Below, piece after piece: positions 3,008 through 3,175 of a DNA stretch of 12,783 nucleotides. Position 1 is the first letter of the stretch. Each line of letters starts with the position of its first letter. A program made the translations under genes and the position numbers. The DNA comes from a virus. Taxonomy: Duplodnaviria; Heunggongvirae; Uroviricota; Caudoviricetes. The DNA lies in IMG/VR virus record IMGVR_UViG_2636415418_000003; one strand, given 5' to 3'. The notes below the pieces were generated by a model, which saw only the letters and a list, made by a program, of their open reading frames with translations, did not search any database and was not told where the DNA came from.

Positions 3008-3141
3008 GTATTTGTCCTTTATCAACATTAACTTCAGGGTTTACACGACCAACCAAGCCAGGCACAATCAAACTGTCAGGAATGATGACGAGGCTAACAA
3101 TTGTTATGAGTCTGCAAACTCATGGCGGTCATGCTTCAGAG

Positions 3142-3175
3142 ACCGGGTTTGTGAAAATGGACCCGGTTTTTTTAT
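3142..3175 (+). terminator. Intrinsic terminator on the plus strand with no plus-strand CDS upstream (orphan)
   Basis: Stem accgggt (3142-3148) / acccggt (3161-3167), extendable by A-U and G-U pairs, followed by a run of 7-8 T; the reverse strand has no T tract after the hairpin. Confidence 0.5.

Follow-up and report, generated by a model that had tools for sequence, protein, structure and literature searches.

The stretch of DNA analysed here (the window, 12,783 nt of one strand read 5' to 3') comes from a Caudoviricetes virus, IMG/VR record IMGVR_UViG_2636415418_000003. Just upstream of a small cysteine-rich gene on its minus strand (2741-3007), an earlier reading of the letters alone, here called the sequence-only reading, had proposed a plus-strand RNA of ~100 nt ending in an orphan terminator. 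We find that the RNA gene is one part of a portable regulatory cassette, carried on prophages and satellites, that consists of a copy of the host nrdA promoter, two equivalents of boxes for the repressor NrdR, a leader of ~230 nt with the opposed small-RNA gene, and an exchangeable cargo. Its features in the window are as follows, ending with the gene to its right.

3072..3173, plus strand: predicted small RNA, ~100 nt (RNAalifold, pair counts, strand test, covariance model)
3040..3068, plus strand: predicted small-RNA promoter of sigma-70 type, -35 TTTACA (3040-3045) and -10 CACAAT (3063-3068) being 17 nt apart
3008..3235, minus strand: predicted cargo mRNA leader of about 228 nt (start placed from the nrdA-like -10 and homology to E. 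coli nrdAB, PMC12176259)
3195..3241, minus strand: two NrdR-box equivalents with a 15-bp linker (collinearity with nrdA; box definition from PMC13584703)
3242..3269, minus strand: nrdA-type promoter copy, with -35 TTGTAC at 3269->3264, a 16-nt spacer and -10 TAGAAT at 3247->3242
3270..3457, minus strand: Klebsiella-like copy of the ubiG-nrdA intergenic and upstream regulatory region (BLAST, alignment)
3458..3496, minus strand: ubiG fossil of 39 nt, the last 12 codons (VNYMLHTSAKQD) and the stop, lying 27 nt after the recombinase stop
2741..3007, minus strand: cargo gene, 88-aa Cys/His protein, phrog_3941 (homologue starts, PHROG match)
3524..4090, minus strand: short tyrosine recombinase, 188 aa, catalytic domain only (Pfam PF00589 at 6.5e-21; phrog_216)

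A conserved structured RNA on the plus strand

By BLAST, positions 3039-3396 form a conserved unannotated block in 95 E. coli chromosomes. A pattern scan recovered seven loci from species-representative genomes (Enterobacter, Buttiauxella, Citrobacter, Kluyvera and Klebsiella), three from IMG/VR and 46 from metagenomes, and copies in Pectobacterium and Serratia were found independently of the pattern, via the cargo protein. The same architecture is present in ~60 homologous loci from eight enterobacterial genera; individual loci are numbered L001 onwards where they need to be told apart.

The structure analyses used an alignment in which the RNA region is represented by 27 distinct versions. 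The predicted 5' end lies at 3072-3076, and an unstructured 5' tail of ~19 nt, only moderately conserved, precedes three stem parts, P1 (3090-3094/3133-3137), P2 (3101-3103/3126-3128) and P3 (3106-3111/3118-3123), and then the terminator hairpin. P3 is the internal hairpin ATGAGT/ACTCAT that the sequence-only reading had pointed out, and it was confirmed. Pairing is maintained in 97.6% of the structure cells, and eight pairs (38 cells) have changed on both sides. None of 500 shuffled controls reached the observed pairing and covariation values, and when the partners were slid by 1-3 columns pairing fell to 27-54%. A perfect 12-bp palindrome, TAACAATTGTTA, was also seen within the small RNA, at 3095-3106.

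Counted on the plus strand, G·U accounts for 135 helix cells and A·C for 2, and a mirror structure on the minus strand would therefore carry 135 mismatches. With the strands folded independently, the consensus energy is -29.5 kcal/mol for plus and -11.4 kcal/mol for minus, and the plus strand is the more stable in 27 of 27 sequences. The window RNA (3074-3176) folds at -41.2 kcal/mol with z = -5.47, a value equalled by 0 of 200 shuffles, against z = -2.07 for its complement; the Serratia copy gives z = -4.0 for the RNA strand and -0.96 for its complement. These figures bear on the reading that what is conserved is a riboswitch-like element or attenuator folded by the mRNA leader on the minus strand, the plus-strand 'terminator' being its mirror image. 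Such a reading can call on the length of the leader, on one long-range helix whose variation in the mRNA sense is only wobble-compatible, and on a P3 hairpin that is possible on both strands. It has to accept the A·C mismatches into which the plus-strand G·U cells turn, a far weaker minus-strand consensus energy, a conserved run of 5-9 T that follows the stem on the plus strand only, and the lack of a match to any Rfam cis-regulatory family, and we regard it as very unlikely.

A covariance model built from the alignment recovered the window at 3071-3173 (+) with 113.7 bits, the Pectobacterium copy with 101 bits and the Serratia copy with 34 bits (E about 1e-5), in the same relative position. 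Compensatory changes occur in P1, P3 and the terminator of the recovered copies, that of Serratia included. The proposal of a plus-strand small RNA of ~100 nt is thus borne out by a conserved covarying structure, strand asymmetry, a promoter, a U tail and the covariance model, and on this comparative evidence a structured plus-strand RNA gene is very probably present. Rfam 15 yields no match at the gathering threshold in the window; in a permissive search the matches with the best E-values in 2900-3600 score 11-18 bits, against gathering thresholds of 36-70. We found no paper on this RNA, and a literature search on NrdR boxes in prophages, and on NrdR together with antisense RNA or toxin-antitoxin systems, returned nothing relevant.

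Predicted signals that start and stop the RNA

The weak promoter suggested by the sequence-only reading, TTTACA-17-CACAAT at 3040-3068, is present. It matches the consensus at 9 of 12 positions, which by itself is chance level, the consensus scan counting 38 such sites in the window against 33.5 expected. What lifts it above chance is that all 31 distinct upstream versions share TTTACA and the 17-nt spacing, whereas the spacer sequence itself varies, with conservation of about 50-95% and several forms. The divergent Serratia copy retains TTTACA-17-TACAAT despite its diverged RNA body, and in about half of the distinct homologues the -10 is directly preceded by TGG (an extended -10). Sequence common to loci with different cargo genes starts ~4 nt upstream of the -35, so that the promoter forms the edge of the conserved module. 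In these alignments, such conservation at the edge of a module is the pattern expected of a real promoter.

The orphan terminator was found within 2 nt of where it had been placed, with the core ACCGGGT/ACCCGGT and then seven T at 3167-3173. Its stem comprises 12-14 bp (3141-3152/3157-3168, with a G·U and A-U extension) at -18.9 kcal/mol, with changes on both sides in 5 of 13 pairs, and each of the 27 versions has a U tail of 5-9 residues, which follows the stem on the plus strand only. The consensus scan overlooked this terminator, apparently because the 7-bp G+C core was scored with a loop longer than 8. It was also correctly foreseen that no plus-strand coding sequence lies upstream: in homologues, indels disrupt the open reading frames (ORFs) 2994-3188 and 3001-3207, and the consensus scan places a separate terminator, at 2701-2726, behind the plus-strand gene upstream (1979-2680). 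A tRNA or tmRNA fragment was considered as the source of the orphan terminator, and none was found.

The hairpin could be an insulator that shields the NrdR operator and the nrdA-type promoter from stray plus-strand transcription, the RNA itself being functionless. The fixed distance of 22-24 nt from the end of the terminator to the box 1 equivalent in nearly all loci fits this, as does an unrelated hairpin of the same orientation at the same place in the plasmid version of the cassette described below. An insulator, however, needs neither the P1-P3 helices, which are conserved and covary, nor a conserved -35/-10 exactly 100 nt upstream, and the upstream plus-strand gene is already provided with the terminator at 2701-2726. 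We consider this explanation quite improbable.

A captured nrdA promoter opposite the RNA

Positions 3195-3496 (minus strand) reproduce host DNA that takes in the 3' end of ubiG, the spacer between ubiG and nrdA, and the nrdA promoter with two NrdR boxes. Over 3241-3419 the BLAST identity to K. pneumoniae is 90.5%, and the homology carries on in the alignment as far as the ubiG fragment; positions 3241-3419 also match the nrdA upstream region of Citrobacter, Salmonella and Enterobacter. Blocks around 3358-3408 show no variation among the window and L001-L003. Because the ubiG fossil occurs together with the complete ubiG-nrdA intergenic region, a mobile element appears to have captured about 300 bp of a Klebsiella-like chromosome. 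The fossil is present in 17 loci, and all of these except L040 and L051, which have too little flank, carry at least a recombinase fragment beside the module.

A DNA-level role for the block, either as a ubiG-nrdA attachment site or as a fim-like invertible promoter flipped by the neighbouring recombinase, would agree with the start of host-like DNA 27 nt after the recombinase stop, with the short tyrosine or serine recombinases that flank at least 30 loci, and with the 9-bp repeat TAACAATTG/CAATTGTTA at 3098-3106 and 3493-3501. Yet no locus has a full ubiG or nrdA beside the cassette, so no attL/attR forms are seen, the promoter orientation is identical in all 60 loci, and the repeat does not exceed chance and is missing from most homologues, where the sequence is AATCGTT or GATTCA. 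We rate this role as extremely unlikely. The second TAACAATTG, at the edge of the ubiG fossil beside the recombinase gene (3493-3501), was likewise judged to be chance.

The promoter copy aligns collinearly with sequence upstream of the genuine nrdA genes in K. pneumoniae, C. freundii and E. coli K-12 and faces the small-RNA gene and the cargo gene. The consensus scan detected no other minus-strand promoter-like site between 3008 and 3250. NrdR boxes are 16 bp long, occur in pairs 15-16 bp apart and have the critical positions C4, A6, A8, T9, T11 and G13 (PMC13584703). In the window all 6 critical positions are matched by the box 1 equivalent, CCACTACATGTAGTAC (3210->3195), and 4 of the 6 by the box 0 equivalent, ATTGCTTATGTAGTAG (3241->3226). 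Homology to the nrdA region ends right after box 1, and the small-RNA terminator, in the opposite orientation, follows about 22 nt further on. In about 55 of the 60 loci this geometry is fixed, with the box 1 equivalent 22-24 nt past the T-run, the -10 at +68 and the -35 at +90. A 'third hairpin' with apparent covariation at 3195-3241 was reread as the two NrdR-box equivalents, each of them a partial palindrome, and not as RNA structure.

The cassette thus resembles the chromosomal nrdAB promoter of E. coli and Klebsiella in its upstream region, -35, -10 and box 0/box 1, with 90% identity to K. pneumoniae, and departs from it in that box 2 is replaced by the small-RNA terminator, the downstream gene does not encode a reductase and the location is a mobile element. 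Co-regulation of the cargo with nrdAB through the copied upstream region can be soundly inferred from these alignments, and direct repression by NrdR through the predicted boxes is plausible. Two promoter-copy lineages, one Klebsiella-like and one E. coli/Serratia-like with the DnaA box TTATCCACA, are joined to the same RNA family, and the promoter part must therefore have been exchanged or captured more than once. The E. coli/Serratia-type copy, with the DnaA box and the -35 CACTTGCAA, was observed in L020 (2825-3030; an IMG/VR contig) and L067 (2590-2835; Serratia).

The leader from 3173 to 3072 is perfectly complementary to the small RNA, and since the promoter copy points through the RNA gene into the cargo, the RNA would be the cis-antisense partner of the cargo leader. 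That complementarity is certain if the nrdA-type promoter fires, activity that its homology predicts. The sequence-only reading had called the RNA antisense-adjacent to the Cys-rich gene. It does lie next to that gene, but 'adjacent' understates the relation, the RNA being fully antisense to a leader whose likely promoter is at 3269->3242. The specific link to the Cys-rich gene held in so far as the RNA lies beside ORF 2741-3007, and failed as to specificity, since the cassette also serves an unrelated gene encoding a 304-aa protein. The 5' end of the Cys-rich gene is at 3007, as had been assumed, with ATG 3007 preceded ~8 nt upstream by the Shine-Dalgarno sequence AAGGA; homologues also begin there, with MPICK or MTICK. 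A longer call from 3028 in the ORF list was rejected as the cargo start.

Within the leader, 3139->3130 (AAGCAUGACC) may form a long-range helix with 3052->3043, ~40 nt upstream of the start codon. Variation in this helix is only wobble-compatible in the mRNA sense, which is modest evidence for it, and binding of the small RNA would be predicted to break it. P3 can fold as a hairpin in either RNA, the two loops being complementary, and the loop flips strand among variants (CUGCAA vs UUGCAG). Both RNAs are therefore suited to initiating contact loop to loop.

We put at about 0.6 the probability of a full cis-antisense gate, in which the small RNA has a promoter of its own and gates a cargo mRNA whose regulation follows that of nrdAB. 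By homology, transcription of the cargo mRNA would be under nrdAB-like control and would rise with replication stress or shortage of deoxynucleoside triphosphates (dNTPs). The small RNA would pair with the complementary ~100 nt of the leader, probably starting via the P3 hairpin loops, and would set a threshold, such that cargo protein is made only when mRNA synthesis exceeds the antisense RNA. Repression would act via duplex cleavage and/or refolding of the leader, aided by interference from convergent transcription, its negative sign being taken by analogy, and the terminator would stop the polymerase transcribing the small RNA about 22 nt short of the NrdR operator. The cargo of the element is thus probably tied to the DNA-precursor status of the cell, gated by RNA.

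The RNA could instead be a payload of the mobile element in its own right, a trans-acting, Hfq- or ProQ-dependent regulator of host or phage mRNAs that finds its targets through the 5' tail or the conserved loops GAGGCUAAC and GGUCAUGCUU, its antisense position being incidental or secondary. A Rho-independent terminator with a long U tail, an unstructured 5' tail of ~19 nt, internal-loop sequences that are unchanged even in the pattern-independent loci L001-L004 and L069, and the service of one RNA to two unrelated cargos would all suit such a regulator. In 60 loci, however, the RNA is never seen apart from the promoter-leader-cargo arrangement, the cargo start regions and nrdA leaders that were inspected show no consistent complementarity to it, and the 5' tail has the moderate conservation noted above. 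We hold a trans-acting role to be improbable.

Several points weigh against the cis-antisense gate. Both the small RNA and the cargo mRNA are predicted from sequence comparison. The anchors CACAATC, AGGCTAA and GGTCATGC were set by the search pattern, so their invariance in L009-L066 arises by construction, and many of the covarying cells stem from few events, chiefly the split between type A and type B. The window's own promoter, with its 9 of 12 matches, is without the TG extension. In E. coli nrdAB, box 0 and box 1 bind NrdR poorly (KD, the dissociation constant, > 6 µM), and the functional NrdR site is formed by box 1 and box 2 (PMC12176259); box 2 is missing from the cassette, whose box 0 equivalent in the window reaches only 4 of 6. 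The antisense overlap stops 65 nt upstream of the start codon, which excludes direct occlusion of the ribosome site and leaves regulation via cleavage, stability, refolding or transcriptional interference. The position of the overlap does not fix the sign of regulation, and the negative sign assumed here follows the analogous pairs SymR/SymE and IstR/TisB. Neither cargo resembles a classical type I toxin, which is a small and usually hydrophobic toxic protein.

Cargo, related systems and significance

Two unrelated proteins serve as cargo, the Cys-rich 88-aa protein in 42 loci and the 304-aa protein in 19. The former has invariant C4, H8, C29 and C32, a probable zinc site judging from their conservation, and the motif SQAGTVRH; its model (predicted local distance difference test, pLDDT, 87.5) consists of confident helices and has no structural match. 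Genes for this protein that lack the cassette occur in integron cassettes of Vibrio, in a P2-like phage (A-Q variable region) and in a P22-like phage (downstream of cI), positions that are typical of accessory or defence genes. The 304-aa protein (e.g. L002 7058-7972) has 722 homologues at E ≤ 0.001, which extend to archaea and, at 42-47% identity, include Methanobacterium, Kosmotoga and cyanobacteria, and it has no Pfam domain. Its AlphaFold model is likewise confident (pLDDT 88.7); it is mixed alpha/beta and soluble-looking with a long beta-hairpin, and has no significant neighbour in the PDB. A faint match of this protein to the 6-fold beta flower family was observed; a related family, '4-fold beta flower' (PF21784, E = 5e-27), strongly matches a 143-aa protein encoded at window 365-796 (minus strand).

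Two candidate pairings with cargo sequences were set aside. Pairing in trans with the cargo start fits only the MTICK-type start (9 bp, GCAUGACCA), and neither the start in the window nor the 304-aa gene. An 11-nt match to the RNA 5' end at 2834-2844 lies inside the invariant LPDSQAG codons, has no counterpart in the other cargo and was judged to be chance.

To the left of the cassette, the plus-strand gene 1979-2680 encodes a DUF2971 protein that matches the PADLOC candidate defence family PDC-S31 (E = 1e-36), so that this region looks like a defence or accessory hotspot. The right-hand neighbour in the window is the short tyrosine recombinase, and at least 20 loci have such a neighbour; among the at least 30 loci flanked by short tyrosine or serine recombinases, the tyrosine relatives are similar in length and some are only 36% identical. 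A helicase-like gene and a major capsid gene lie further to the right, as in a satellite or prophage. A tiny hydrophobic ORF at 3388->3302 (minus strand) was rejected, its frame being broken by a 2-nt indel in an A-run in close homologues and the stretch being nrdA upstream DNA.

The same nrdA-promoter mimic with NrdR boxes is present on the minus strands of an Enterobacter phage-plasmid, a K. pneumoniae IncFIB plasmid and a Kosakonia plasmid (L007 4300-5200, L073 1880-2660 and L074 1590-2380). In this plasmid version the mimic is followed by a different opposite-facing terminator and a putative antisense RNA, and the antisense target occurs a second time in the leader, in a copy that co-varies between plasmids (GUUGUUAACCGGCGAC in one, AAUGUAUCUGGCGAC in the others). 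There are two hydrophobic ORFs of 28 and 26 aa (e.g. MQMLLLFLKLAHPVTVIIMTLLGFWKNR), and by its sequence the whole looks like an undescribed type I toxin-antitoxin locus. Its parts have no Rfam or Pfam match, and the RNA regions of L067 and L069 have no Rfam match either. The plasmid version supports the idea that an nrdA promoter copy combined with a convergent antisense RNA may be a recurring building plan.

Among known systems, SymR/SymE of E. coli, whose target gene is toxin-like and induced by stress, pairs a short RNA from its own promoter with the 5' part of an mRNA whose promoter is under a repressor of DNA-metabolism stress (LexA boxes); SymE is not a small membrane peptide, and the SymR overlap covers the start codon. 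The cassette is like it in having a predicted own-promoter RNA opposite the 5' part of an mRNA, a promoter that may answer to a stress repressor and a target other than a membrane peptide, and unlike it in its NrdR-type sites on a copied nrdA promoter and in an overlap that ends before the start codon; SymR has no sequence or Rfam relationship to the window RNA. With the type I toxin-antitoxin loci IstR-1/TisB, AgrB/DinQ and Rdl/Ldr it would share an antisense RNA on a long structured leader and a threshold logic that sets a constitutive RNA against an mRNA induced by stress, and the plasmid variant, with its tiny hydrophobic ORFs and second target site, is much like these. The cargos of the window type, by contrast, are not hydrophobic peptides, the promoter is an nrdA mimic, and neither the RNA nor the peptides match any family. 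The phage RNAs OOP of lambda and sar of P22 are short, terminator-ended and convergent with, and complementary to, the transcript that they regulate, and they overlap coding or ribosome-binding regions of core regulatory genes, whereas the window RNA lies within the leader region of an accessory gene, with which it moves as a cassette. A cis-antisense RNA on a horizontally acquired gene is of a known kind, and its fusion to a pirated reductase promoter is a new variant, distinguished by the ubiG fossil, the two promoter lineages and the exchangeable cargo.

A further reading, which we consider unlikely, is that mobile elements of Enterobacterales (prophages, satellites and plasmids) have repeatedly copied the nrdA promoter and operator and added an antisense gate, making a 'dNTP-status sensor' that releases a normally silent cargo only upon nrdAB derepression. 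The trigger might be, for example, an infecting phage that drains or rewires the nucleotide pool, and the cargo (the 88-aa zinc protein, the 304-aa protein or the Ldr-like peptides) might be a defence or toxic effector. The NrdR regulon would then extend to mobile defence genes, with the small RNA acting as an antitoxin-like safety catch in infection-triggered modules of a new class.

If the cis-antisense gate proves correct, the RNA would represent a well-supported small-RNA family in at least eight enterobacterial genera that is absent from Rfam 15. The cassette would be a case of regulatory piracy, in which an accessory gene is placed on a copied host promoter, its product is linked to the state of replication and the dNTP pool, and a scrap of ubiG remains as the fossil of the capture. 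The recurrence of the design on plasmids, with a different RNA and toxin-like peptides, would suggest a general building plan. Inducing conditions could also be named for two widespread proteins of unknown fold, namely hydroxyurea, loss of nrdR and loss of the RNA.

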